From the NCBI GenBank assembly GCA_038065235.1, contig JBBTRK010000007.1, positions 1 to 57,314 of the forward strand: a stretch of DNA of 57,314 nt, written 5' to 3'. A program made the translations under genes and the position numbers. The stretch's first letter is position 1. Each line of letters starts with the position of its first letter. The notes under the pieces are model-generated. The model worked only from the letters and a program-made list of their open reading frames with translations. It was not told where the DNA came from and ran no database searches. Positions 8,523 to 50,770 of the stretch are shown one piece after another. The stretch comes from Patescibacteria group bacterium (GTDB lineage: Bacteria > Patescibacteriota > Patescibacteriia > PEXW01).

Positions 8523-8602
8523 TGGCGGAGAGGGAGAGATTCGAACTCTCGATAGGGTTTTAACACCCTATAACAGGTTAGCAACCTGCCGCCTTTCACG
8601 GC
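8523..8602 (-). pseudogene. Truncated duplicate of tRNA-Ser(GCU), 3' ~80 nt without a 5' acceptor strand
   Basis: Shares a 46-nt identical core (anticodon and variable arms) with the intact gene at 8708..8801. It has a different T stem (GAGAG/CTCTC) and acceptor 3' strand (CCTCTCC). No complementary GGAGAGG lies upstream; the D loop is shortened and replaced by a CCGGCGAAGCCGG hairpin. Confidence 0.6.
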
Positions 8603-8707: not shown

Positions 8708-8801
8708 TGGCGGAGGGAGTGGGATTCGAACCCACGATAGGGTTTTAACACCCTATAACAGGTTAGCAACCTGCCGCCTTCAGCCACTCGGCCATCCCTC
8801 C
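8708..8801 (-). tRNA. tRNA-Ser(GCU), type II
   Basis: GGAGGGA/TCCCTCC acceptor, GCC-GAGTGGCTGAA-GGC D arm, anticodon loop TTGCTAA (GCT), long variable arm, GTGGG-TTCGAAT-CCCAC T arm and encoded CCA. Confidence 0.9.
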
Positions 8802-8802
8802 C

Positions 8803-9048
8803 TCACAGACCGCTAATTAATTTTTTAAAACTGTTACCACCCTTATATTTTTTTATTTCTCGCTCACGTTTCCAAGCACTGACTTTATCAGGTAATTCTT
8901 CAGTATGGACAACGGTCCACTTGCCACCATTTTTCGTTGAGATGTTTCGACCGCTGTTGTGACGTAGGAGTCGCTCTTGGAGGTCCTCTGTATACCCAAC
9001 GTAATATCGTTGCGTCGAGGAATTTTGGATAATATATACAGTAAACAT
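8803..9048 (-). CDS. GIY-YIG nuclease superfamily protein (YhbQ/UPF0213-like, 81 aa)
   Basis: MFTVYIIQNSSTQRYYVGYTEDLQERLLRHN carries the GIY/YVG core, followed by KREREIKK. ATG at 9048; the upstream part of the track ORF is translated repeat. The stop codon is 1 nt from the tRNA 5' end. Confidence 0.85.
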   Translation of the reverse strand: MFTVYIIQNSSTQRYYVGYTEDLQERLLRHNSGRNISTKNGGKWTVVHTEELPDKVSAWKREREIKKYKGGNSFKKLISGL

Positions 9049-9057
9049 AGCATTTTT

Positions 9058-16829: not shown

Positions 16830-19325
16830 TTAGCGAATGGTAAATCCAGCTTTCACCGCGTTCACGGTGATGGTGGCGCCCCGTTTGAACTTTTTCTCCA
16901 GGATGGCGCGGGCCAGGGGATTCTCCACTTCATCCTGGATAATCTTCCGAATTGCCCTCGCCCCTTGCTCTGGCGAGAAGCCCAGCTCGGCAATGCGCTT
17001 GATAGCCGCAGGGGTTACCAACAGTTTGTAGCTCTGCGCGGCCGCAAGCGTCTGCAGCTCGGCAATTTGAATCTGCACTATGCGCTTCACATCTTTGGCG
17101 GTCAGCGGGCGGAAGACGATGACTTTATCAATACGGTTGAGGAATTCCGGGCGGAACTGGTCTTGGAGCTGGTTCGTCACTTCATGTTTGATATCCTCGA
17201 ACTTCTCATCCGCGGCTTTCTTGGCGTCGGTGGAGACTTGGTCAAAGCCGAGCTTGGCCGTCTGGTTGAGGCTCTCCAAGCCGACGTTGCTGGTGAATAT
17301 GATGATGGTGTTCTTGAAGTTCACCTGCTTGCCGCTGCCGTCGGTCAGGTGGCCGTCTTCCAGCACTTGCAGGAGCAGGTTGAACACGTCGGGGTGGGCT
17401 TTCTCTACCTCGTCGAAGAGTACTACCGAGTAGGGCTTGCGGCGCACGGGTTCGGTGAGCTTGTTGCCTTCTTTGTATCCCACGTAACCGGCGGGGGCGC
17501 CAATGAGCTTGGTGACGTTGAAGCTCTCGCCAAACTCGCTCATGTCGATGCGGATGAGCGCGTTCTCATCTTCAAAAATTTCTCGAGCCAGAACTTTGGC
17601 CATTTCGGTCTTGCCCACCCCCGACGGACCCATGAAAATGAAAGAGCCAATGGGCCGGTTATGATTGCGCAGCCCCACCCGGGAGCGGCGGATGGCATCG
17701 GCAATGGCGTGGGCGGCTTCATCCTGGCCCACGACGTGGGTTTTCAGCTGCGATTCCAGCTTCAGCAAGCGGTCGCGCTCGTCGCTTACCAGGTCGCGGA
17801 GGGGGACGTTGGTCATGCGGCTCACCACGTCGGCAATGTCTTTACGCGTAATGGTCGCTAGCTTCTTGCGGTTCACGGGCACCAAGCTCGCCAGCTGCTG
17901 GATTTTTTCTTGCACTTGCTCGGCCGCGGTCTTAAAGCTAAGTGCTTCCTCAAAGTGCTCGTTGAGTACAGCATTTTCTTTCTGTGTGTCCAAATCTTCC
18001 AGCTGTTTCTCCAGTGCGCGTTGCTTCTTCGCTTCGGTCGAGCTGCCTTGCTCTACCTTCCGCTTGGCGGCTGCTTCGTCGATGAGGTCTATGGCTTTAT
18101 CGGGCAGGAACTTATCTTGGATGTACCGTTCGGAGAGCTCAACCGCAGCCTGAATTGCTTCGTGGGTTATGGCGATGCGGTGGAACTTTTCGTAGTTCGG
18201 TCGCAAGCCTTCCAGAATCTGCTCGGTCTCTTGCAGGCTTGGCTCGGGAACCACAATGGGTTGAAAGCGGCGCTCCAGGGCGGCGTCCGACTCAATGTGC
18301 TTGCGGTATTCATCCAAGGTCGTGGCGCCAATCACGCGCAGCTCGCCGCGCGCCAAGGCTGGCTTCAAGATGTTCGCCGCATCCATGCTACCCGCGGCCG
18401 AGCCCGCGCCGATGATGGTGTGAATCTCGTCAATGAAGACAATGATGTTGGGATCGGCCGTGATCTCTTCAATAATCTGTTTCAGGCGGGATTCAAACTC
18501 ACCGCGGTACATAGTGCCGGCAACGATGAGCGAAAGATCCAGGCGAAGAATGCGCTTGCCTTGTAAGGCGTCAGGCACATTTCCCTCCACCACCTTCTTC
18601 GCCAAGCCTTCGACAATAGCGGTCTTGCCCACGCCGGGGTCGCCGAGGAGCACGGGGTTGTTCTTGGTGCGGCGCGAGAGAATGTGGATGAGTCGTTCAA
18701 TTTCCCCTTTGCGGCCAATGACCGGGTCAATGTTCGCCTGCAGCTTGGCGTTCGTCAAATCCGTGGCGAAGAAGTCCAAGGCCGGGGTTTTACTCTGCTT
18801 CTTCTTACTGCCCTTCTCCTTCTCGTCCTTCACGTCTTCGAAGAGTTCGGTTATGTCGGGGAGTTTCGTCGTGGAGCGAAGCACCAGCACCACTTGGCCG
18901 AGCATTTCGCTGGCATCAATGTTCTGGTCGTGCCACATCTTCTGCACGAACGGCGTCTGCAGCTTGAGCAAGCCGTAGAGCAAGTGCTCGGTGCCAATGT
19001 AGCGGTGGTGGTACTTGGCTGCAATCACGCCGCTCTTTTCCACTGCCGCTTTCCCTTCCAGCGAGAGGGTCGGCTTGGCGAGCGTCGTGCGTATGGTTAT
19101 GAGGTCGGCTTCGCTATCCCGCAGCTGGATGCTCTGGCGGACGGCGTCCAGGTTGAAGTTAACTTTCTGCAGGATTTCGTAGGCAATAGAGCCCTTCTGC
19201 ACGCCCAAAGCGTACAGCAAATGCTCCGGGCCAATTGCTTTGGCGCGGTTGCCGGCAGCGAAGTTAGTGGCCTTGGCGAGCACCTCGCGCAAGTGGGTGG
19301 TGAACTTGTTGAGGATTGGTTGCAT
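16830..19325 (-). CDS. clpC: ClpC-type AAA+ chaperone/unfoldase (two ATPase domains)
   Basis: Clp_N repeats. D1 has GDPGVGKT and IVFIDEIH; a short M-domain coiled coil follows; D2 has GPSGVGKT and [11 protein letters not shown]; a KLGF loop is present. ATG at 19325; the track ORF starts at a TTG at 19349. Confidence 0.93.
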
Positions 19326-19595: not shown

Positions 19596-19659
19596 GTCAT
19601 CCTGAACTCGTTTCAGGATCTCTGGGCCCAGAGATGCCGGATGTGCTCTCCGGCATGAC
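19596..19659 (+). mobile_element. HP-A dual-hairpin element, ORF-less (MITE-like) copy
   Basis: GTCATCCTGAAC-TCG-TTTCAGGATC, linker, GATGCCGGA..TCCGGCATGAC. Same orientation and termini as the GIY-YIG-bearing copy at 44079..44437. Confidence 0.7.
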
Positions 19660-19666
19660 ACGGGAG

Positions 19667-20560
19667 TCACATCCCCCTTAATATTTTGATGCGCTCCTCA
19701 ATTGGCGGGTGGGTGGAGAACATTTTCCCAAAGCCTTTGCCATGTGCCGCCCCAAACGGGTTGGCAATATACAGCGGAGCCGTGGAGTTGTTGGCCGTTG
19801 CCATCTTGCCATCCTGGGCGGCAATTTTTTCTAAAGCGCGCGCCAGGCCTTCGGGGTAGCGGGTAAGCTGCGCCCCGCTAGCATCGGCCAAAAACTCCCG
19901 CTTGCGCGAGACAGCCAGCTGGATGAGCAAGGCGGCAATGGGCGCGAGTATGGACAAGATAATGCCGACGAGCATGAAGATACCTTGCGCGCCACCCTTG
20001 CCACCCCCCGAGCGGCGGCCGCCAAAGAAGTTGAAGCGAATAAACCAGTGCGCCAGCAGGCTGATGATACCGACGAGCACCGCGACCAGCGTCATGAAGC
20101 GTACGTCGTAATTCCCAACGTGGGAGAGCTCGTGGGCAATAACGCCTTCCAGTTCTTCGTTCTCCAGTTTCTCTAAGGCGCCAGTCGTCACGGCAATAGA
20201 CGCGTGCTGGGGGTCACGGCCCGTGGCGAACGCGTTAATTACCTCATCCTGCATGACGTACACCTTAGGGCTAGGCAGACCCGCCGTGATGGCTAAGTTT
20301 TCCACAATGCGCACCAGGTAGGGGTTCTGCTCCTTGGTCACTGCCACAGCGCCAGCAGTCCACAGGGCAACCTTGTCACCGCTAAAGTAGCCCACCAAGG
20401 TCATACCAACCGAGAAGGCGATTGCCAAGACGAGCACTCCTGGCCCAGCCGCGTAGGCTTTGGAGAAGACGTACCCAAGCGCGACGATGATGATTACGAA
20501 TGTAACGATGAGCAAAATGCTTCGGCGTTTGTTTGAGGAAATCTGGGTGTAGGTAGTCAT
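19667..20560 (-). CDS. htpX: Zinc metalloprotease HtpX (M48)
   Basis: HELSHVGNYD (HExxH) plus four TM segments and the C-terminal HPPIEERI motif. Confidence 0.92.
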   Translation of the reverse strand: MTTYTQISSNKRRSILLIVTFVIIIVALGYVFSKAYAAGPGVLVLAIAFSVGMTLVGYFSGDKVALWTAGAVAVTKEQNPYLVRIVENLAITAGLPSPKVYVMQDEVINAFATGRDPQHASIAVTTGALEKLENEELEGVIAHELSHVGNYDVRFMTLVAVLVGIISLLAHWFIRFNFFGGRRSGGGKGGAQGIFMLVGIILSILAPIAALLIQLAVSRKREFLADASGAQLTRYPEGLARALEKIAAQDGKMATANNSTAPLYIANPFGAAHGKGFGKMFSTHPPIEERIKILRGM

Positions 20561-20571
20561 AGGGATGGGGG

Positions 20572-20616
20572 GAACTAAGAACCAAGAACAGAAGAACTAA
20601 GAACTGGGAACGGGGG
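20572..20616. repeat. GAAC-rich flank of the four-helix-bundle cassette (left)
   Basis: GAACTAAGAACCAAGAACAGAAGAACTAAGAACTGGGAAC. Contains AGAACTAAGAAC, which recurs inverted at 20978..21019. Confidence 0.6.
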
Positions 20617-20620
20617 AAAT

Positions 20621-20977
20621 CTAACTTTTCATTGAATGTCGGAATCCGACGATTTGTTTAGCAATTTGTTCAGCTTCGCTTAATAGGTTTGCATGTTTAC
20701 TCGTCGATAAATATTTCTCATCGAGAGCAATATCAAGGCATGCGACGACTTCTTCAAGTGAACCCAATGCCATTGTCAGGAAGCGCGCAAAATCTTTATC
20801 CGAATGTCGATTTGAACCTTCTGCAACATTGAGGAGTATGGAATTTGCCGCTCGACGGATTTGGTCGGTGAGTGCAAAACGCTCATCTTTTGGAAAATCT
20901 GCACTCGTCTTGTAGACCAGTGAACGAAAAATTCGGGCGACTTTGTAGACTGGAAACTCTCGAAATCGAAACAGCAT
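20621..20977 (-). CDS. Four-helix-bundle protein (23S rRNA intervening-sequence protein family)
   Basis: FREFPVYKVARIF...DERFALTDQIRRAANSILLNVAEG...LGSLEEV pattern typical of the family. Confidence 0.85.
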   Translation of the reverse strand: MLFRFREFPVYKVARIFRSLVYKTSADFPKDERFALTDQIRRAANSILLNVAEGSNRHSDKDFARFLTMALGSLEEVVACLDIALDEKYLSTSKHANLLSEAEQIAKQIVGFRHSMKS

Positions 20978-23592: not shown

Positions 23593-23750
23593 ATTACGGT
23601 GTGTTTTTACTAGTATAGGAAAAGAGATACGATTCATCTTCGAACTTTGATCTCTGCACGGTAGCAAACCAGGTTGCTGACTGTGCTTCTGATATTTGTA
23701 CAGCAGTTGGGATTGGCAAAGGGTATTGCGCAGAGGCTTGTGATTGCATT

Positions 23751-23884
23751 TGTCAGGGCACTTGCTAGTTGGCGGAGCCAGGCGGGAGCAATCCCGTTGT
23801 ATTAAGAACCAACATATTAAACACGCTGACCTTGAAGTTCGGCGGGATTGCCGCACCCTCGCAAGGCTCGGGCTCGCAATGACA
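23751..23884 (-). repeat. HP-B palindromic element (inverted copy, left terminus degraded)
   Basis: GCAATCCCGTTGTATTAAGAACCAACATATTAAACA...GGCTCGCAATGACA matches the reverse complement of the 39765..39891 element almost base for base. Confidence 0.7.
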
Positions 23885-23889
23885 ATGGG

Positions 23890-24090
23890 GCAATCCCGTT
23901 TAACTTCGAGACCAGTTTTTTATATTGGTGCTTGATAAACGGGATTACCACCCCGCCTCGGTCTGCTGCCCTCGGCACCCCTCCTCAATCGAGGAGGGGA
24001 GTCGCATACAAAGAGGCTAATATATTGACTCTCCCCCTTAGCCAAGGGGGAGCAACAATAAATTTCTCTCCACCAACTCAGGGGGTAATT
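23890..24090 (+). repeat. 201-bp direct repeat A (HP-B core plus HP-C hairpin modules)
   Basis: Aligns with 25199..25400 with about 5 mismatches and 1 indel. Contains hairpins CCCCTCCTC..GAGGAGGGG and CTCCCCCTT..AAGGGGGAG. Confidence 0.85.
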
Positions 24091-24304
24091 GGATTCAAAT
24101 TACCACCCCGTCTCCACCTTTGCATGGTTATTATTATCCCCTCCTTTAAAAGGAGGGGTAGGGGTGGTCACTTTCCTTCCGCCGACGCAGAGGGTAGTTC
24201 TGGTAGTTATTTTGTGTACCCATACGTTTGATATTCACTGTTTTTCGGCGCGTTGACCCGTGGTACACTTACCATATATGGTTGGCACAAATGGCAAAAA
24301 AACA

Positions 24305-25138
24305 ATGACCCCAGTGCCCACGAAGATCGCGGTTTTTCGCGGAAAGGAAGTCCGAAAAACCATTCACCAAGATGAGTGGTGGTTTGTGGTGGAAGACGTT
24401 GTCACCGTCTTGACCGACTCCAGCGACCCCAAGCAGTACATCAACCGTATGCGTCAGCGGGATCCCGAGCTCGCCAAAGGGTGGGTACAATTTGTACATA
24501 CCCTTGCCATTGTCACCCCTGGCGGCTCTCAACAGATGAACTGTGCCAACACCGAAGGTATCTTCCGCATCATCCAGTCTGTCCCATCCCCGAAGGCCGA
24601 GCCGTTCAAGCGGTGGCTAGCGAAGGTTGGGTACGAGCGGATTCAGGAGATAGAAGATCCAGAAATCGCAACAAAGCGTACCCGCGCCCTGTACAAGGCC
24701 AAGGGTTACCCGGATGACTGGATTGAGAAACGCATGCGCGGCATTGCTATCCGCGAGGAGCTCACGGATGAGTGGCAGCAGCGTGGGGTGAAAGAAGATA
24801 CCGAGTACTCAATCCTCACTGCGGAAATATCAAAAGCCACCTTCGGCATGACCCCGACCGAGTACAAGGCATTCAAAGGTCTCAACCGGCAGAACCTGCG
24901 TGACCATATGAACGACCTAGAGCTTATTTTCTCCATGCTTGGCGAGGCGGCAACGACGGAGATCGCACGGCACAAAGATTCTCAAGGTTTCGACGAAAAT
25001 CGTGAGGCAGCCCGCAAGGGCGGTACCATTGCAGGTGGAGCCAGGAAAAAACTTGAGAAGGAATCCGGCAAACGTGTTTCCACCAAGCAGAACTACCTGA
25101 AGGATCCGAAAGCGAAGAAGCGGATCACGAATCGTTAG
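24305..25138 (+). CDS. Bro-N domain protein, DinD (DNA-damage-inducible protein D)-like
   Basis: The N-terminus (IAVFRGKEVRKTIHQDEWWFVVEDVVTVLTDS...NTEGIFRIIQSVPSPKAEPFKRWLA) fits a Bro-N fold. The C-terminal half is DinD-like. Start at 24305 chosen; 24278 and 24260 are alternatives. Confidence 0.75.
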   Translation: MTPVPTKIAVFRGKEVRKTIHQDEWWFVVEDVVTVLTDSSDPKQYINRMRQRDPELAKGWVQFVHTLAIVTPGGSQQMNCANTEGIFRIIQSVPSPKAEPFKRWLAKVGYERIQEIEDPEIATKRTRALYKAKGYPDDWIEKRMRGIAIREELTDEWQQRGVKEDTEYSILTAEISKATFGMTPTEYKAFKGLNRQNLRDHMNDLELIFSMLGEAATTEIARHKDSQGFDENREAARKGGTIAGGARKKLEKESGKRVSTKQNYLKDPKAKKRITNR

Positions 25139-25176: not shown

Positions 25177-25400
25177 TGTCATTGCGAGCAGCAGCGAAGC
25201 AATCCCGCTGAACTTCGAGACCAGTTTTTTATATTGGTGCTTGATAAACGGGATTACCACCCCGCCTCGGTCTGCTGCCCTCGGCACCCCTCCTCAATCG
25301 AGGAGGGGAGTCGCATACAAAGAGGCTAATATATTGACTCTCCCCCTTAGCCAAGGGGGAGCAACAAAAAATTTCTCTCAGCCAACTCAAGGGGGTAATT
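25177..25400 (+). repeat. HP-B left terminus (25177..25198) plus 202-bp direct repeat B (25199..25400)
   Basis: TGTCATTGCGAGCAGCAGCGAA followed by a near-identical copy of repeat A. Confidence 0.85.
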
Positions 25401-25456: not shown

Positions 25457-26503
25457 ATGGCTAAAGAATTACGCCTGCCAGAATCGGATTTTCTCCTCTA
25501 CACCACGCCCGCAGGCGACGTGCGAGTGGACGTATTGTTTTCGGACGAATCAGTCTGGCTGACGCAAAAGCGTATGGCCGAGCTTTTTGAGACTACGCCG
25601 CAAAATATTACCATTCATTTGAAAAACCTCTACGCAGAGGGTGAAATAAGCGAAGCATCAACTTGTAAGGAATTTTTACAAGTTCAGAAAGAAGGTCCCA
25701 GGGAGATAGAGCGAAAAACCTTATTTTATAAACTCGAAGCCATCATTTCGGTTGGGTATCGAGTGAACTCTGAAAAGGCCGTTCGTTTTCGTCAATGGGC
25801 GACTAAAACCTTACGCGAATTTGTTATAAAAGGTTTTGTTTTGGATGATGAACGACTAAAAAATGGGGTGCATTTTGGAAAGGATTATTTTGATGATTTG
25901 TTGGAACGTATTCGTGAGATACGTATTAGTGAACGCAGGTTGTACCAAAAAATTGGAGATATTTACGAAACCGCTGCCGATTATGACGGCACAAGCGAAG
26001 CGACAAAAAAGTTTTTTGCTTTTGTGCAGAATAAATTGCACTTTGCGGTTACCGGAAAAACTGCCGCAGAAATTGTCCGCTATAGATCAGATAGTGGCAA
26101 AAAACACATGGGGCTTACTTCTTGGCGGCAAAGCCCTAAAGGCAAGATTATTAAGATTGATATTGGGGTAGCAAAAAATTACCTCAACGAAAAAGAATTA
26201 GGGAGCCTACGGCGAATAGTCTCCGCCTTTCTTGACCTTGCGGAAGATCGGGCAACCCGTGGCATAGTAACTACTATGTCACAATGGGCTGAATTTATTG
26301 ATAAGTATTTGAGCCTGGGTAGCTATAAAGTTTTACAAGGAGCAGGGGGTATTTCTCATGAAAAAGCAATTGCACATGCTGAAAAGGAATTTATAAAGTA
26401 CCGAATAATACAGGATCGTGCCTTTGTCTCCGACTTTGACCGTGAAACGCAGAAGTACCTCAAAGTTTCCAAGTCCGCTAAACCAAAGAGGCGAAAATTA
26501 TAA
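25457..26503 (+). CDS. rhuM: RhuM family virulence/defence-island protein
   Basis: Full-length resemblance to RhuM proteins as recalled (LLYTTPAGDVRVDVLFSDESVWLTQKRMAELF...VGYRVNSEKAVRFRQWATKTLREF...ISERRLYQKI). Confidence 0.8.
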   Translation: MAKELRLPESDFLLYTTPAGDVRVDVLFSDESVWLTQKRMAELFETTPQNITIHLKNLYAEGEISEASTCKEFLQVQKEGPREIERKTLFYKLEAIISVGYRVNSEKAVRFRQWATKTLREFVIKGFVLDDERLKNGVHFGKDYFDDLLERIREIRISERRLYQKIGDIYETAADYDGTSEATKKFFAFVQNKLHFAVTGKTAAEIVRYRSDSGKKHMGLTSWRQSPKGKIIKIDIGVAKNYLNEKELGSLRRIVSAFLDLAEDRATRGIVTTMSQWAEFIDKYLSLGSYKVLQGAGGISHEKAIAHAEKEFIKYRIIQDRAFVSDFDRETQKYLKVSKSAKPKRRKL

Positions 26504-26509
26504 TTTAGA

Positions 26510-26640
26510 TTTTCTCCACCAACTCAGGGGGTAATTAGTTTCAAATTACCACCCCGTCTCGGTCTGTTGACCTCGACTCCGGGGTGCTTCCGATGGGTCG
26601 CACCCGCCTTCGACCCCCTCCTCCGAGAGGAGGGGTGATT
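26510..26640 (+). repeat. Partial third copy of the repeat-A tail plus an HP-C-like hairpin
   Basis: TTTTCTCCACCAACTCAGGGGGTAATT..AAATTACCACCCCGTCTC matches 24063..24114. It is followed by the hairpin CCCCCTCCTCCGAGAGGAGGGG. Confidence 0.7.
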
Positions 26641-37385: not shown

Positions 37386-37452
37386 GTCGTCCTGAACTTG
37401 TTTCAGGACCCCGTCTAAAATAAACGGGATGCCGAAACGAGTTCGGCATGAC
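37386..37452 (+). mobile_element. HP-A dual-hairpin element, ORF-less copy
   Basis: GTCGTCCTGAACTTGTTTCAGGAC, linker, GATGCCGAAACGAGTTCGGCATGAC. The right terminus contains the ATG annotated as the pilT-like start. Confidence 0.7.
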
Positions 37453-39764: not shown

Positions 39765-39891
39765 TGTCATTGCGAGCCCCGAGTCCGGCGAGGGGCGCGG
39801 CAATCTCGCTGAACTTCGAGGTCAGCTTGTTTAATATGTTGGTTCTTGTTACAACGGGATTGCTTCGTCGCTGCTGCTCCTCGCAATGACA
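39765..39891 (+). repeat. HP-B palindromic element, complete 127-bp copy
   Basis: Termini TGTCATTGCGAG / CTCGCAATGACA, with inner arms GCAATCTCGCTGAAC / GTTACAACGGGATTGC. Begins 8 nt after the pilC stop. Confidence 0.8.
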
Positions 39892-40044: not shown

Positions 40045-40110
40045 CCTCCCCTCCTCGGTTTAGGAGGGGTGCCCTGAGTGAGCAGCAGCGAGTCGAAGGG
40101 CGGGGTGGTA
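40045..40110 (-). repeat. HP-C module (inverted) flanking the coiled-coil cassette
   Basis: Reverse complement reads TACCACCCCGCCCTTCGAC...GGGCACCCCTCCTAAACCGAGGAGGGGAGG. Confidence 0.7.
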
Positions 40111-40126
40111 ACCCTGTGCAATCCCT

Positions 40127-40155
40127 TTGACAAACGAATTTGCCCGCGTTACCAT
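40127..40155 (+). promoter_or_regulatory. Possible promoter of the coiled-coil ORF
   Basis: TTGACA, 17 nt, TACCAT. This would give a nearly leaderless mRNA. Confidence 0.4.
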
Positions 40156-40164
40156 GGTGTTCCT

Positions 40165-40512
40165 ATGCCGAAGGATATCCCCAGTCAGACCGACAAACGC
40201 CTTGACGTCTTGGAAACCAAGATGGATTCCTTGGTGACTAAAACCGAATTTCGAGGACTTGAAACCAAGGTAGATAACCTTGAAACCAAGGTAGATAACC
40301 TTGGAATTAGGGTTGGTGGTTTAGAAACCAAGGTTGATAACCTCGAAACCAAGGTAGATAATATGGTGACTCGGGATGAATTTAATACCACCATGGACGA
40401 AGTGCTCACTATCGTCCGCCGTCTCGATCAAGAGCGTGTCTTTACCATTGAGTGGGTACGCCGCATTGAAGCAGATGTTGAGCGGGTTAAGCACCATCTG
40501 CACCTGGTATAG
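40165..40512 (+). CDS. Small heptad-repeat coiled-coil protein (115 aa)
   Basis: ATG at 40165. Repeated LETKVDN heptads are encoded by 21-bp tandem DNA units. The upstream part of the track ORF is translated repeat. Confidence 0.65.
   Translation: MPKDIPSQTDKRLDVLETKMDSLVTKTEFRGLETKVDNLETKVDNLGIRVGGLETKVDNLETKVDNMVTRDEFNTTMDEVLTIVRRLDQERVFTIEWVRRIEADVERVKHHLHLV
40261..40365 (+). repeat. 21-bp tandem repeats inside the coiled-coil ORF
   Basis: GAAACCAAGGTAGATAACCTT occurs twice perfectly (40261..40302). Two diverged units follow at 40324..40365. Confidence 0.85.
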
Positions 40513-40527: not shown

Positions 40528-40608
40528 TACCACCCCGCCCTTCGGGCACCCCTCCTCTCAGAGGAGGGGATATTGCTAAAACTCCTCCCCTTGAAAAGGG
40601 GAGGGGAG
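40528..40608 (+). repeat. HP-C module (forward) plus CTCCTCCCC..GGGGAGGGGAG hairpin
   Basis: TACCACCCCGCCCTTCGGGCACCCCTCCTCTCAGAGGAGGGGA, in inverted orientation relative to 40045..40110. Confidence 0.7.
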
Positions 40609-43641: not shown

Positions 43642-44055
43642 ATGAAACAGAGGGGAGTTTCCATGATCAGTATCGTCGTTGCCAGCTTAGTCGCACTCGC
43701 TGTGCTGTTCTTCGGCGTGCGGCTCATTGGCCAAGAGCGAGCCAAGGCGCGGGATAGCCAGCGCGTGGCCGACATGGCCCGCCTGCAGGTTGGCTTTCTG
43801 TTGCTTTTCAACCGGACGTCGAGCTTTGCCCCTGCGGCTGTAAACGGCTGCGACGTGGTGAAGAAGCCTGTTCGAACGTGCAGCCTCAGCCAGGACCTGC
43901 CGAGTATTGCCACGTTCCGTGATCCACGCGGTGGTGATTACCTGGTGACAAAAGTCCCCGATGCGACGACCTACCAAATTTCTTTCACTCTGGAGCAGGG
44001 GACGACCGGGTTAGCCAAGGGCGCTCACGTGCTTACCCCCGAGGGGATTAGGTAA
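43642..44055 (+). CDS. Pilin-like protein with atypical leader
   Basis: MKQRGVSMISIVVASLVALAVLFF followed by AKARDSQRVADMARLQ (pilin alpha1 pattern). Glu5 is absent. TATACT at 43630..43635 suggests a leaderless transcript. Confidence 0.65.
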   Translation: MKQRGVSMISIVVASLVALAVLFFGVRLIGQERAKARDSQRVADMARLQVGFLLLFNRTSSFAPAAVNGCDVVKKPVRTCSLSQDLPSIATFRDPRGGDYLVTKVPDATTYQISFTLEQGTTGLAKGAHVLTPEGIR

Positions 44056-44078
44056 AAGCATGCAAGCATTTTTCTATT

Positions 44079-44437
44079 GTCATCCTGAACTAGTTTCAGG
44101 ATCGCGTTTATATATAGTGGCATGCCTAGAAGTTACTATGTCTACATTCTCATGAACGAAAAAAATACCACGAGTTATATTGGGGTAACAAATAACCTTG
44201 AACGTCGATTGTACGAACATCAACATCAGCTCGTACCTGGGTTTACTAAAAAGTACAATGTTCATAAGCTCGTTTATGTCGAAGAGACAAATAGCGCATA
44301 TTCAGCTATTGCACGAGAGAAGCAGTTGAAGAATTGGCATCGAGAATGGAAATTCAATCTTATAAAACAAGAAAATCCTACACTAACTGATATCTCCGCC
44401 TCTTGGTAACGGGATGCCGAAACAAGTTCGGCATGAC
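44079..44437 (+). mobile_element. HP-A element carrying a GIY-YIG ORF (putative autonomous copy)
   Basis: Left hairpin GTCATCCTGAACTAGTTTCAGGATC, AT-rich linker, 288-nt GIY-YIG ORF, right hairpin GATGCCGAAACAAGTTCGGCATGAC. Termini are inverted repeats (GTCATCCTGAAC versus GTCATGCCGAAC). Confidence 0.65.
44122..44409 (+). CDS. GIY-YIG nuclease superfamily protein (YhbQ/UPF0213-like, 95 aa)
   Basis: YYVYILMNEKNTTSYIGVTNNLERRLYEHQ...AIAREKQLKNW. Spot GC count 21/60 at 44161..44220 versus 36/60 in pilD at 44761..44820. Confidence 0.88.
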   Translation: MPRSYYVYILMNEKNTTSYIGVTNNLERRLYEHQHQLVPGFTKKYNVHKLVYVEETNSAYSAIAREKQLKNWHREWKFNLIKQENPTLTDISASW

Positions 44438-44490
44438 GAATTTGTATGAACGTTATATTTTCCAACCCATCCGTCATCCTGAATTCATCT

Positions 44491-44555
44491 GTCATCCCGA
44501 ACTTGTTTCGGGATCGCTTTGTTACAGTGAGATGCCGAAATAAATTCGGCATGAC
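44491..44555 (+). mobile_element. HP-A dual-hairpin element, ORF-less copy
   Basis: GTCATCCCGAACTTGTTTCGGGATC, linker, GATGCCGAAATAAATTCGGCATGAC. Preceded by a partial left end GTCATCCTGAATTCATCT (44473..44490). Confidence 0.7.
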
Positions 44556-44567
44556 AGAATAAGTACC

Positions 44568-45371
44568 ATGCCCCTAATCCTCCCCCTCTTCGCGTTTATC
44601 TTCGGCACTGCCATTGGCAGCTTCTTGAACGTGGTGGCAATTCGGCTGCCCAAACGGCGGAAGTTCTTGCAGCTGAATCAGCGCTCCAAGTGCCCGAACT
44701 GCCGGCACGTGCTGCATACGCCAGACCTTGTACCCATTGTGAGCTACCTCAGCCTTCGGGGGCGGTGCCGGTATTGCCGCAAACCCATTAGCCCGCAGTA
44801 CATGCTGCTGGAGCTCATCACCGGTGTCACGTTCGCCCTGCTGGTGTGGCAGTACGGTGTCAGTGGAACGACGTTTGTGGGTCTCATCGGCGCCAGCTTT
44901 CTCATTGCCCTGGGCACCATTGATGCGCGACTCAAAATTGTACCAGACAATTTAAGCCTGCCCGCAATCCTGGTCACTTTCTTGGCGCAGGTGTTGGTCA
45001 TTTCAGATTTTGGCGTCAACGGTTTCAATGCGGCAATGCTTCGTAGCCTTTGTGGCCTCGTCATTGGTGCCATCATTGGTGTGCTCTGGTTCTGGCTGCA
45101 ATGGGTTGTGTCTCGTGGCAAGTGGGTAGGCACCGGGGATATCCGCCTAGGCGCGCTGCTCGGTGTCTTCCTGGGTATGCCCCTAGCCCTCGTCGCCCTT
45201 TTCTTGGCCTACATTACGGGGAGCATTTGGGCGGTGGCACTCTTGGCCAGGCGCAAGGTCAAGTTTAGCAGCGCCATTCCCTTTGGTGCTTTCTTGGCTT
45301 TGGCCGGGGTCATTGCCTTCATTTTCGGGCCAGCCGTGGTATCCTGGTACCAGCAATTTATTGGCCTATGA
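44568..45371 (+). CDS. pilD: Prepilin peptidase (A24) PilD
   Basis: N-terminal zinc finger CPNCRH...CRYCRKPIS, catalytic-Asp-containing TM segments (GTIDARLKIVPD; GTGDIRLGALLG). Confidence 0.92.
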   Translation: MPLILPLFAFIFGTAIGSFLNVVAIRLPKRRKFLQLNQRSKCPNCRHVLHTPDLVPIVSYLSLRGRCRYCRKPISPQYMLLELITGVTFALLVWQYGVSGTTFVGLIGASFLIALGTIDARLKIVPDNLSLPAILVTFLAQVLVISDFGVNGFNAAMLRSLCGLVIGAIIGVLWFWLQWVVSRGKWVGTGDIRLGALLGVFLGMPLALVALFLAYITGSIWAVALLARRKVKFSSAIPFGAFLALAGVIAFIFGPAVVSWYQQFIGL

Positions 45372-46510: not shown

Positions 46511-47456
46511 AATACCATCGAAACAGAAACTGGGTTCACCCAGCACCACTTTTAGACTTACGAAAAGTGGTGCTGGGTTTACCCTTGTGGAGACGCTGGT
46601 GGCAGTGGGGGTGTTTGCCATCCTCATGGGGCTGGTAATTACCAACTACCGGCGGGGGAATGACGACAGCATTCTTTCGCGGGAGGCAGCGCTGCTGATG
46701 GCGCAGTTACGAGTGGCCCAGGAGCAAACCGCGGCCGGGCGGGTTACGCCTTATTGCCATCCTGGGAACTCTGATACACCGTGTGTCGGTTGTGCTGAAG
46801 AACAAACCTGCACCCAATCCTCCCCGTCGGGTGGGTATGGAGTATTTTTTAGTTGCAGTACTGACACCACAGGTGATAATCACTGGCCAGACCGGGACCA
46901 CTACTTTACGTTTGGTGACCGGGTGCAGTGCCAGAAAAATTGCTTCCCGTTTATTTATGACGACGCTGCACACTGGGATAGTAACGTGCCTGCGTTTAGG
47001 AAAATTGATGCCGCTAGTGATCACCTCTTTAGCAGTGGGGGTCTGAGCCCTGGGCCATATGGCGACACCATAGCCAGTCAAAATACTTTTGATTCGAAGG
47101 TAAAAATCATAGACTTGCAGCTTATTGAATCTGGGGTCAATGGCGGCAAGGCGACCTGCGTCTCACTATCACCTTGGATAGGAAAGCAACCATTACCAGG
47201 AGACGCTGTGCCAGCTGGGTACCCCCTGCAAGCCACTATTCATTTCCCTGCCCCAGATGGGCGGCAGGTTGTGATAAGTGATAATATAAGTACCAAGACC
47301 CCCACGTCGGTTATAGGGTTTACGGGTGACCAACCCTGGAAAGAAGCTAATATTATGCTCGCCCTGAAAGCCCGTCCCAGCACCGATTGCCGAGTCGTGC
47401 GGGTTACCAAAGACGGCATCATTAGCCAAAGCACCGATGCGGACTGCCAATTCTAA
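46485..47456 (+). CDS. Minor pilin-like protein (Cys-rich), paralogue B
   Basis: ...KSGAG, then FTLVETLVAVGVFAILMGLV. C-terminus STDCRVVRVTKDGIISQSTDADCQF. Start uncertain (ATG 46485, TTG 46500 or GTG 46458). Confidence 0.8.
   Translation: MPTATLPHKIPSKQKLGSPSTTFRLTKSGAGFTLVETLVAVGVFAILMGLVITNYRRGNDDSILSREAALLMAQLRVAQEQTAAGRVTPYCHPGNSDTPCVGCAEEQTCTQSSPSGGYGVFFSCSTDTTGDNHWPDRDHYFTFGDRVQCQKNCFPFIYDDAAHWDSNVPAFRKIDAASDHLFSSGGLSPGPYGDTIASQNTFDSKVKIIDLQLIESGVNGGKATCVSLSPWIGKQPLPGDAVPAGYPLQATIHFPAPDGRQVVISDNISTKTPTSVIGFTGDQPWKEANIMLALKARPSTDCRVVRVTKDGIISQSTDADCQF
46538..46578. repeat. Hairpin repeat ACCCAGCACCACTTTT / AAAAGTGGTGCTGGGT (copy 2) within the prepilin leader
   Basis: 16-bp perfect stem with a 9-nt loop. 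The right arm encodes KSGAG of the leader. Same arms as 581..619. Confidence 0.75.
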
Positions 47457-50601: not shown

Positions 50602-50770
50602 TGTCATTGCGAGCCCGAGCCTTGCGAGGGTGCGGCAATCTCGTTGAACTTCGAGTCCAGCTTGAATTCATCTGTCATCCTGAACTTGGTTCAGGATCTC
50701 GTTAATATAAAGTGAGATGCCGAAACAAGTTCGGCATGACAAATATGTATATACACTCCTCGCAATGACA
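50602..50770 (+). repeat. HP-B element interrupted by an HP-A element
   Basis: Left part TGTCATTGCGAGCCCGAGCC...GAACTTCGAGTCCAGCTTG and right terminus CTCCTCGCAATGACA are separated by an insert that includes the HP-A copy at 50674..50740. Confidence 0.75.
50674..50740 (+). mobile_element. HP-A dual-hairpin element, ORF-less copy nested in HP-B
   Basis: GTCATCCTGAACTTGGTTCAGGATC, TCGTTAATATAAAGTGA, GATGCCGAAACAAGTTCGGCATGAC. Confidence 0.75.

Follow-up and report, generated by a model that had tools for sequence, protein, structure and literature searches.

In a 57,314-nt stretch of a Patescibacteria genome (contig JBBTRK010000007.1, hereafter the window), a small GIY-YIG nuclease gene lies between two inverted hairpins in a 359-bp cassette at positions 44079-44437, and hairpins of the same kind also occur elsewhere in the window as pairs without a gene. 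Judged by homology and architecture, it is highly probable that the 95-aa open reading frame (ORF) encodes an Ssn-family nuclease and that the hairpins are its cognate Ssn-related motifs (SRM), so that gene and hairpins together would form an Ssn/SRM module. The feature belongs to a system that was published in 2025 (Chenal et al., Nat Commun 2025;16:2388, PMC11893778) and is not a new kind of element.

Ssn proteins are single-domain GIY-YIG proteins of about 94 aa (CDD cd10448), and ssn genes are flanked by hairpin repeats, which are called NTS in Neisseria (CGTCATTCCCGCGMAVGCGGGAATCYRG) and SRM generally, with hundreds of copies in some genomes (PMC11893778). A degenerate SRM pattern built from 29 genomes found a nearby repeat for 71% of the homologues and repeats on both sides for 42%. 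SsnA purified from N. meningitidis, N. elongata, N. wadsworthii and Wolbachia bound the hairpin only as single-stranded DNA (ssDNA) and on one strand only, the cut fell a few nucleotides upstream of the hairpin, and the characterised enzymes did not cleave double-stranded DNA (dsDNA). The GTC before the palindrome governed cleavage, the C after it was the most important base for binding, and deletion of ssnA raised transformation with NTS-bearing DNA about five-fold. In its discussion the same paper likened NTS-ssnA-NTS to an insertion sequence (IS), compared it with repetitive extragenic palindromic sequences and their associated tyrosine transposases (REP/RAYT) and proposed domestication; transposition was not shown (PMC11893778).

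A preliminary description of the window, made from the letters alone, had taken this architecture as undescribed, but the NTS/SRM-ssnA-NTS/SRM arrangement, the IS likeness and the REP/RAYT analogy are all found in the 2025 paper. Literature searches on GIY-YIG with repeats, on miniature inverted-repeat transposable elements (MITE), on COG2827 and on the sequence of the window's hairpin gave no description, and the sequence of the TCCCGCG-type hairpin led to PMC11893778. No later Ssn papers were found in the literature search.

Anatomy of the cassette and its gene-less copies

Five pairs of hairpins lie in the window in the same orientation, and only the pair at 44079-44437 encloses an ORF (Table 1). 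All five copies of the preliminary description were present: flexible patterns for the left and the right hairpin gave four exact matches each, compared with 0.00 in 100 dinucleotide shuffles of the window, and the remaining left hairpin (at 37386) and right hairpin (at 19634) have variant sequences. The hairpin strings in that description, written with a 3-nt gap, had no match; the quoted arms are 2 nt apart, and the hairpin actually folds into a stem of 8 bp (ATCCTGAA/TTCAGGAT) closed by a loop of 5 nt. From left to right, the cassette consists of the left hairpin TGTCATCCTGAACTAGTTTCAGGATC, an AT-rich leader of 18 nt, the 288-nt ORF, three more bases and the right hairpin GATGCCGAAACAAGTTCGGCATGAC. 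Reverse-complemented, the right hairpin reads as a left-type hairpin with another stem (ATGCCGAA instead of ATCCTGAA), so each unit is a pair of inverted hairpins with the ends TGTCAT...ATGACA. The outer 12 nt agree at 10 of 12 positions, which bears out the terminal inverted repeats seen earlier. Ten hairpins of this class, called type 1 here, and one partial copy were found in the 57 kb, where 0 are expected, and all ten read GTC-palindrome-C on the appropriate strand. All hairpin copies are intergenic, mostly in the same orientation as the flanking genes.

The ORF is more AT-rich than its neighbours, as spot counts had suggested: its GC content is 37.5% (37% at third codon positions, GC3), compared with 54-58% (GC3 59-70%) in the neighbouring genes. 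A type IV pilus cluster surrounds it, with a hypothetical ORF of 152 aa on one side and the prepilin peptidase gene (pilD) on the other, and this cluster also contains response regulator, T2SSE, T2SSF and pilin-like genes.

In the four gene-less copies, or doublets, the two hairpins are 13-18 nt apart, in line with the short spacing reported before, and as ssDNA these copies have strong folds (-17 to -22 kcal/mol, z -4 to -7.3). The left hairpin at 37386 carries a compensatory A-T to G-C change (GTCGTCC...GGACC), and the right hairpin of the 19596 copy has a different stem and loop, GATGCCGGATGTGCTCTCCGGCATGAC. The inner flank of each hairpin unit is xCGTT on the left and its complement AACGx on the right, and the spacers of the short copies are imperfect palindromes. 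The short copy is two inverted hairpin units that abut, and the long copy is the same pair with a gene between them.

The preliminary description had derived the short form from the long one by deletion between two ATGCC pentamers, and this is not supported. Of the two pentamers, the first consists of the start codon and the next two bases, CC, and is GTGCC in two related loci that carry the cassette (L213 and L214); the second forms the opening five bases of the right hairpin. At 13 of its 18 positions the leader agrees with the 50674 spacer; it is poorly conserved in relatives, and the likeness is explained more simply by a short inner flank that each hairpin unit has of its own. The doublets at 44491 and 50674 have an 11-nt 5' extension, TGAATTCATCT, in common, and each lies inside another hairpin element. 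The 44491 doublet interrupts an older left hairpin, which is intact in L213.

Table 1 Features of the cassette, of the gene-less doublets and of the related repeats in the window
Feature	Position	Strand	Remarks
Left SRM-type hairpin	44079..44103	+	GTC + 8-bp palindrome ATCCTGAA/TTCAGGAT, loop CTAGT, + C
Inner flank/leader, 18 nt, AT-rich, GCGTTTATATATAGTGGC	44104..44121	+	From left hairpin to start codon
ssnA-like gene, putative 95-aa single-domain GIY-YIG nuclease (stop codon included)	44122..44409	+	Pfam PF01541, E 1e-17
Right SRM-type hairpin	44413..44437	-	Minus-strand reading GTCATGCCGAACTTGTTTCGGCATC
Partial left arm GTCATCCTGAA, then TTCATCT	44473..44490	+	Remnant of a left hairpin that is intact there in L213
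Doublet without ORF	44491..44555	+	Left hairpin with CCCGAA/TTCGGG stem (compensatory), 16-nt spacer, right hairpin; directly upstream of the prepilin peptidase gene
Doublet without ORF	19596..19659	+	Palindromic spacer TCTGGGCCCAGAG; between ClpB-like and M48 peptidase genes
Doublet without ORF	37386..37452	+	Between response-regulator and T2SSE (pilus ATPase) genes
Doublet without ORF	50674..50740	+	End of the pilus cluster; nested inside a type-2 doublet
Type-2 SRM-like doublet, tentative second target family	39766..39890	+	GTCATTGCGAG...GCAATC, spacer of about 70 nt, GATTGC...CTCGCAATGAC; GTC-palindrome-C ends
Type-2 SRM-like doublet	50603..50769	+	Spacer contains the 50674 type-1 doublet; right arm truncated

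The encoded protein

The earlier assignment of the 288-nt ORF to GIY-YIG was confirmed by Pfam PF01541, which spans residues 5-79 of the 95-aa protein (E 1e-17). The sole other Pfam match was the related T5orf172 family over the same stretch and weaker (E 8e-5), and there is no additional domain. We took the SsnA orthologue of N. gonorrhoeae from two chromosomes of that species; it has 94 aa, its gene is surrounded by canonical NTS repeats, and it aligns with the window protein over 85 aa with no gaps and 48% identity (E 2e-28). Residues Y8, Y19 and E66 of the window protein align to gonococcal Y6, Y17 and E64 (numbered by direct count), which are the residues mutated in PMC11893778, and they show little or no variation across 27 aligned homologues of the window protein.

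At E < 1e-5 the protein has at least 7963 homologues. The family profile matched the solved UPF0213 proteins BH0048 and EF2693 (PDB 1zg2 and 1ywl) weakly, with E 2e-5 and 1e-4, and the search of solved structures returned distant UPF0213 proteins only and no Ssn structure. The label 'YhbQ-like' was therefore dropped, since the UPF0213 match reached E 2e-5 only and identity to the gonococcal SsnA orthologue is 48%. No NCBIfam model scored above its cut-off (group I intron endonuclease, 22.6 bits compared with a cut-off of 56), and no phage-borne homologues were found among 50,697 phage records.

GIY-YIG enzymes include classic homing endonucleases. The ORF-less doublet could thus be a recognition or homing site, and a free-standing GIY-YIG gene could have been copied into one doublet by break repair, which would make the long form from the short one. 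It would suit such a history that the ORF sits exactly between two complete hairpin units and that relatives, too, have small nuclease genes between genes of this pilus cluster, a DUF559-like one in L216 and L218 and another GIY-YIG gene in L217 and L218. However, the 95-aa protein is a bare catalytic domain with no DNA-binding domains, the characterised family members do not cut dsDNA, and only one of the five doublets in the window is occupied, and stably inherited. We regard homing as very unlikely.

Hairpins beside homologous genes in other phyla

To place the window's arrangement in its family, 80 loci around Ssn homologues from many bacterial phyla were surveyed for GTC-palindrome hairpins of at least 7 perfect pairs within 200 nt of the homologue gene, with upstream hairpins scored on the coding strand and downstream hairpins on the other strand. 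Such a hairpin was present upstream in 50 loci, downstream in 55 and on both sides in 43, compared with about 4.7% expected from background density. Inward-facing orientation was preferred (49 vs 18 upstream and 50 vs 15 downstream), and the median gaps were 35 and 26 nt. Hairpin flanking is a general property of the protein family, and the earlier statement that the GIY-YIG ORF lies between hairpins of a family also occurring without an ORF holds, and is general across the 80 loci.

The exact left-hairpin pattern occurs in at least 120 species genomes; among the matches listed are Patescibacteria, Bacteroidota, Sphingomonadales, Treponema, Melainabacteria, Elusimicrobiota and Ignavibacteria, and in many of the listed loci the right hairpin lies about 100 nt or less downstream of the left one. 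Several proteins of the 27-homologue alignment are predicted to finish with DAETSSA or a similar string, as GATGCTGAAACAAGTTCAGCATGA translates, and some have an N-terminal extension (RPELVSGS or MLNLFQHL) that is a translated left hairpin. The stems vary among genomes (CCTGAAC, TCCCGCG, TCTGAGC, TTCGACC, TGCCCGG and others) and the GTCAT/ATGAC flanks persist. The stems also covary: in 76 distinct type-1 hairpins the free pair 5-21 was paired in 93%, compared with 49% when shuffled, and C-G, G-C and T-A were all used. Twelve of the 80 homologues, 53-61% identical to the window protein, have the canonical NTS core no more than 400 nt away. Hairpin type does not track identity to the window protein (19 vs 61 loci, mean 58.6% vs 57.7%, p = 0.15).

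Type-1 doublets were also seen as tandem arrays in other phyla, with a period of about 82 nt in an Ignavibacterium metagenome-assembled genome (MAG; L023 1489-1677) and of 163 nt in L112. These arrays (L023, L112, L058 and L025) are reminiscent of clusters of the kind formed by bacterial interspersed mosaic elements (BIME).

The survey also bears on the possibility that the hairpins are ordinary regulatory elements, such as intrinsic terminators, mRNA stabilisers or a small RNA, which are incidental to the GIY-YIG gene. The hairpins are stable, and the copies are all intergenic and co-oriented with most flanking genes, which would fit. But terminator-like matches numbered 2 compared with 1.5 in shuffles, most hairpins are not followed by a T-tract, and Rfam, searched over the whole window at gathering thresholds and over 43900-44700 at E up to 10, gave tRNAs and chance matches only. 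The same hairpin class stands on both sides of homologous nuclease genes in more than half of the 80 loci, across phyla, and hairpins are absent from relatives without the gene. A regulatory or terminator role as the whole explanation is scarcely credible, as the cross-phylum association of hairpin and nuclease effectively refutes it.

The published SRM pattern, HGTCWYN(0-2)YYVSBRHN(0-5)WNVSBRGN(0-2)RNCYNB, matched the upstream flank of 16 and the downstream flank of 11 of the 80 homologues. This pattern is a search heuristic, not a definition, and it misses the CCTGAAC-type stem. Because that hairpin is missed and yet is near-identical in Bacteroidota, Sphingomonadales, Spirochaetota, Melainabacteria, Elusimicrobiota and the candidate phyla radiation (CPR), the published counts of target repeats are probably too low.

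Inheritance and mobility of the cassette

Loci of related Patescibacteria were compared with the window, namely the two with the cassette (L213 and L214) and those of other relatives (among them L215-L218 and L222); in the more distant relatives T2SSF is 76-87% identical to that of the window. L213 and L214 have the same cassette and the adjacent doublet at the same site in the type IV pilus cluster, and the hairpins flank ssnA on its 5' and 3' sides there too. SsnA identity to these two relatives is 86% and 91%, much as for the conserved neighbours (81-93%; 78-93% over the response regulator, T2SSE, T2SSF, the hypothetical protein and PilD). Synonymous codon differences in ssnA outnumber non-synonymous ones by 42 vs 13 in one relative and 31 vs 9 in the second, and third codon positions are only 48-62% identical. 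The left hairpin is identical at 24 of 25 positions and the right hairpin including GG at 27 of 27, and the surrounding intergenic DNA has diverged. Since protein and hairpins are conserved and third positions and surrounding intergenic DNA are not, both protein and hairpins appear to be under purifying selection, and the cassette appears to have been inherited vertically. In L214, as in many homologues, the ORF reads into the right hairpin, which gives the C-terminus ...DAETSSA.

Empty sites, a check proposed in the preliminary description, were found in L215 and L217, where 35 and 29 nt separate the flanking genes and there are no hairpins; target-site duplications, another such check, flank none of the five copies. 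Because more distant relatives have these empty sites of 29-35 nt, the comparison indicates that the cassette was gained once, by insertion at the site between the hypothetical gene and pilD in an ancestor of the window organism and the two relatives, and was then kept. Type-1 hairpins number three to six per 20 kb in L213 and L214 and are absent from all five relatives without ssnA. One type-1 doublet occurs in L222, a locus that ends before the ssnA position is reached. Of the gene-less copies, the one that separates the response regulator from T2SSE was found in the window and at the corresponding site in L214 and L222; in L213 it is missing or degraded, and L215 and L217 have none. The doublet beside the cassette has a different left-hairpin indel in each of the three species (window, L213 and L214). 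The ORF-less doublets thus appear to be gained, lost and rearranged faster than the cassette. Conservation of the short repeats at orthologous sites had been named beforehand as an argument for REP-like elements that do not move, and it was found in part: the cassette and the adjacent doublet are conserved, but the other doublets vary among relatives. GIY-YIG paralogues without such termini had been named as another argument of this sort; the one other GIY-YIG gene in the window lacks the termini, but it belongs to a different subfamily.

At the position of the window's ssnA, L216 (15111-15579) and L218 (15538-16174) have a different small ORF, which by eye resembles DUF559/Vsr-type endonucleases and is bordered by GC-rich CCCCTC...GAGGGG hairpins. 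The intergenic site between the hypothetical gene and pilD may be a hot spot for small nuclease genes. Among the 80 survey loci an ssn gene stands beside pilus genes in two, both from CPR: these are the Saccharibacteria loci L198 (1669-4570, between T2SSE and T2SSF) and L170 (1333-3115, next to T2SSE).

The preliminary description had proposed a candidate autonomous element with MITE-like copies. Taken in full, this would be an active transposable element whose GIY-YIG protein mobilises the 359-bp unit and moves the 65-bp doublets in trans as MITE-like internal-deletion derivatives, and in our judgment that is unlikely. It is true that an IS-like hypothesis was also raised in PMC11893778, and that the window has terminal inverted hairpins with TGTCAT...ATGACA ends, ORF-less copies that have their inner flank in common with the long copy, an ORF of foreign-looking GC content and a hairpin that is near-identical across phyla. 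The empty site in more distant relatives means that the cassette inserted once, and doublet presence is variable among relatives. The TGAATTCATCT common to the 44491 and 50674 doublets, together with their nesting, would also fit a unit that was inserted after being cut a few nucleotides before GTCAT, where Ssn enzymes cut. However, the 57 kb contain a single ORF-bearing copy, which three species share at one locus, where it has diverged about as much as its neighbours and is under strong purifying selection. No pair among the 80 loci exceeded 80% nucleotide identity (two copies in one MAG reached 73% over 139 nt), the phage records had no match, and the ATGCC junction is not conserved, being GTGCC in relatives. 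The lack of target-site duplications at all five copies is not decisive, since ssDNA transposons make none. The family is documented for nuclease activity only, with no strand transfer shown for SsnA, and to our knowledge no strand-transfer activity is known for GIY-YIG domains. Thus the insertion part of the proposal is supported by the empty sites, but current autonomy is not, with one fixed copy, no near-identical copies elsewhere and no target-site duplications.

A broader idea is that hairpin-ssnA-hairpin cassettes in general are mobile elements, in which the ssDNA-specific GIY-YIG nuclease would cut cassette and doublets out a few nucleotides outside the hairpins, and which in CPR would lodge preferentially in type IV pilus/competence loci. 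Local hints in this direction are the empty site in more distant relatives, the common 11-nt extension and nesting of two doublets, and the ssn genes within pilus clusters of two further CPR lineages (L198 and L170). We offer it as a speculation of low probability; if true, it would mean an ssDNA transposon class unrelated to HUH enzymes.

Some points weigh against the assignment of gene and hairpins to the Ssn/SRM system. The published SRM pattern has 0 matches in the window, which places the hairpin, as a variant, beyond what that search defines. The nearest NTS repeats of the gonococcal gene are not in a simple inward-facing arrangement. The low GC content of the ORF would not be expected of a gene whose residence predates the split of three species. 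Besides selection for binding, gene conversion among the repeats could account for part of the hairpin conservation, and the link of ssn to a pilus/competence cluster, seen in three lineages, is suggestive but not statistically firm.

Proposed mechanism and significance

By homology with the enzymes of Neisseria, N. elongata, N. wadsworthii and Wolbachia, the window protein would bind the hairpin only in ssDNA. Only the strand reading GTC-palindrome-C would be bound, and the nick would fall a few nucleotides 5' of the hairpin. In each doublet the left hairpin is readable on the plus strand and the right one on the minus strand; with one readable hairpin per strand, whichever strand is single-stranded would therefore be cut once, just outside the doublet. 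The most likely substrate in the cell would be incoming ssDNA, for example DNA that arrives through the type IV pilus/competence machinery, or ssDNA exposed in replication, and cleavage of incoming ssDNA may limit recombination if N. meningitidis can serve as a guide. We infer ssDNA cleavage by the window protein, its role in vivo and the manner of hairpin spread from such analogies. The position of the nuclease gene inside a DNA-uptake pilus cluster fits the proposed policing of incoming ssDNA.

The analysis does not bring a new biological principle and amounts to an independent rediscovery of Ssn/SRM. It would extend the system to Patescibacteria and to the CCTGAAC-type hairpin, which the published SRM pattern misses. 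The related genomes with filled and empty sites also show how such a cassette comes to be resident: insertion brings it in, and selection then maintains it.

Other repeats and genes in the window

Besides the two type-2 doublets of Table 1, further sites of the type-2 family lie at about 23750-23883 (minus strand) and at 25178-25204. The window shows no second ssn gene; in other genomes, hairpins of the GTCATTGC type flank Ssn homologues (e.g. L136). A third hairpin family, CCCCTCCTC-N4-GAGGAGGGG and variants, is intergenic and was found at 23978-23999, 25287-25308, 26615-26637, 40048-40070, 40549-40569 and 24140-24159, and similar hairpins occur in the relatives L216 and L220.

The second GIY-YIG gene of the window (8806-9049, minus strand) encodes 81 aa (PF01541 E 1e-14), is 31% identical to the first and belongs to another subfamily. 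It abuts a tRNA-Ser gene (8708-8802) and has no flanking GTCAT hairpins. Nearby, 8523-8595 is a 73-nt copy of the 3' part of this tRNA-Ser, 92% identical to 8708-8780 and not called as a tRNA by ARAGORN or Rfam; integrating elements leave partial tRNA duplicates of this sort behind.

Within the pilus cluster, 46532-46584 is an inverted repeat made from DNA that encodes a pilin N-terminus (GGGTTCACCCAGCACCACTTTT, 9 nt, AAAAGTGGTGCTGGGTTTACCC). Similar pilin-derived sequences flank a GIY-YIG gene of the second subfamily in L217 (about 17800-18090) and L218 (about 20180-20640), at another pilin-like gene of the cluster. An ORF of 144 aa and coiled-coil type in the same cluster (40078-40512) contains at least 5 tandem 21-nt repeats (GAAACCAAGGTAGATAACCTT-like) at 40229-40375.

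Two direct repeats of 196 nt (23890-24085 and 25199-25394), which are 97% identical, bracket a gene with a Bro-N domain (ORF 24260-25135). A RhuM-family gene (ORF 25457-26500) follows it, with a shorter related repeat at 26510-26580, and the Bro-N/RhuM region looks like a small variable or mobile island.

Comparison with known systems

Among known systems, UPF0213/YhbQ-type proteins are also bare GIY-YIG proteins of about 100 aa, but by the profile scores given above the relation is distant only, and the window's own member (8806-9049) is without such hairpins. GIY-YIG homing endonucleases (I-TevI and free-standing genes) have the same fold and are likewise small, selfish-looking genes of foreign base composition. 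They differ in having extra DNA-binding domains and in cutting dsDNA at intron-less alleles, whereas the window protein is a bare domain whose characterised relatives act on ssDNA only.

Elements of the IS200/IS605 group (TnpA, 'peel and paste') resemble the cassette in their sub-terminal hairpins that are recognised as ssDNA, in cleavage at a short distance and in the lack of target-site duplications. Their ends, however, lie on one strand and are not inverted repeats, their catalytic domain is HUH, and transposition was demonstrated there and not here.

In the REP/BIME and RAYT systems ('REPtron'; Nunvar 2010 and Ton-Hoang 2012, as far as they are described where cited in PMC11893778), a single-copy, vertically inherited nuclease-type gene has inverted repeat copies on either side, palindromic repeats are scattered in intergenic DNA and often paired, and the hairpin is recognised in ssDNA. 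The likeness is architectural only, as the window enzyme is GIY-YIG and not a Y1/HUH transposase, and a covalent intermediate or strand transfer is not known for enzymes of its type.

The closest likeness is to Ssn/NTS/SRM. Both have a single-domain GIY-YIG protein of 94-95 aa with the same catalytic residues at the same spacing and a gene between inverted GTC-palindrome-C hairpins; in both, the hairpins are also dispersed without an ORF, single and paired, in intergenic DNA, and gene and repeats co-occur across related genomes. The window differs in its host, which is a groundwater organism of the Patescibacteria (CPR), in its stem (CCTGAA/GCCGAA compared with TCCCGCG in Neisseria), in its clean inward-facing pair around one gene, where the Neisseria gene stands amid dense NTS arrays, and in the location of that gene inside a type IV pilus cluster.

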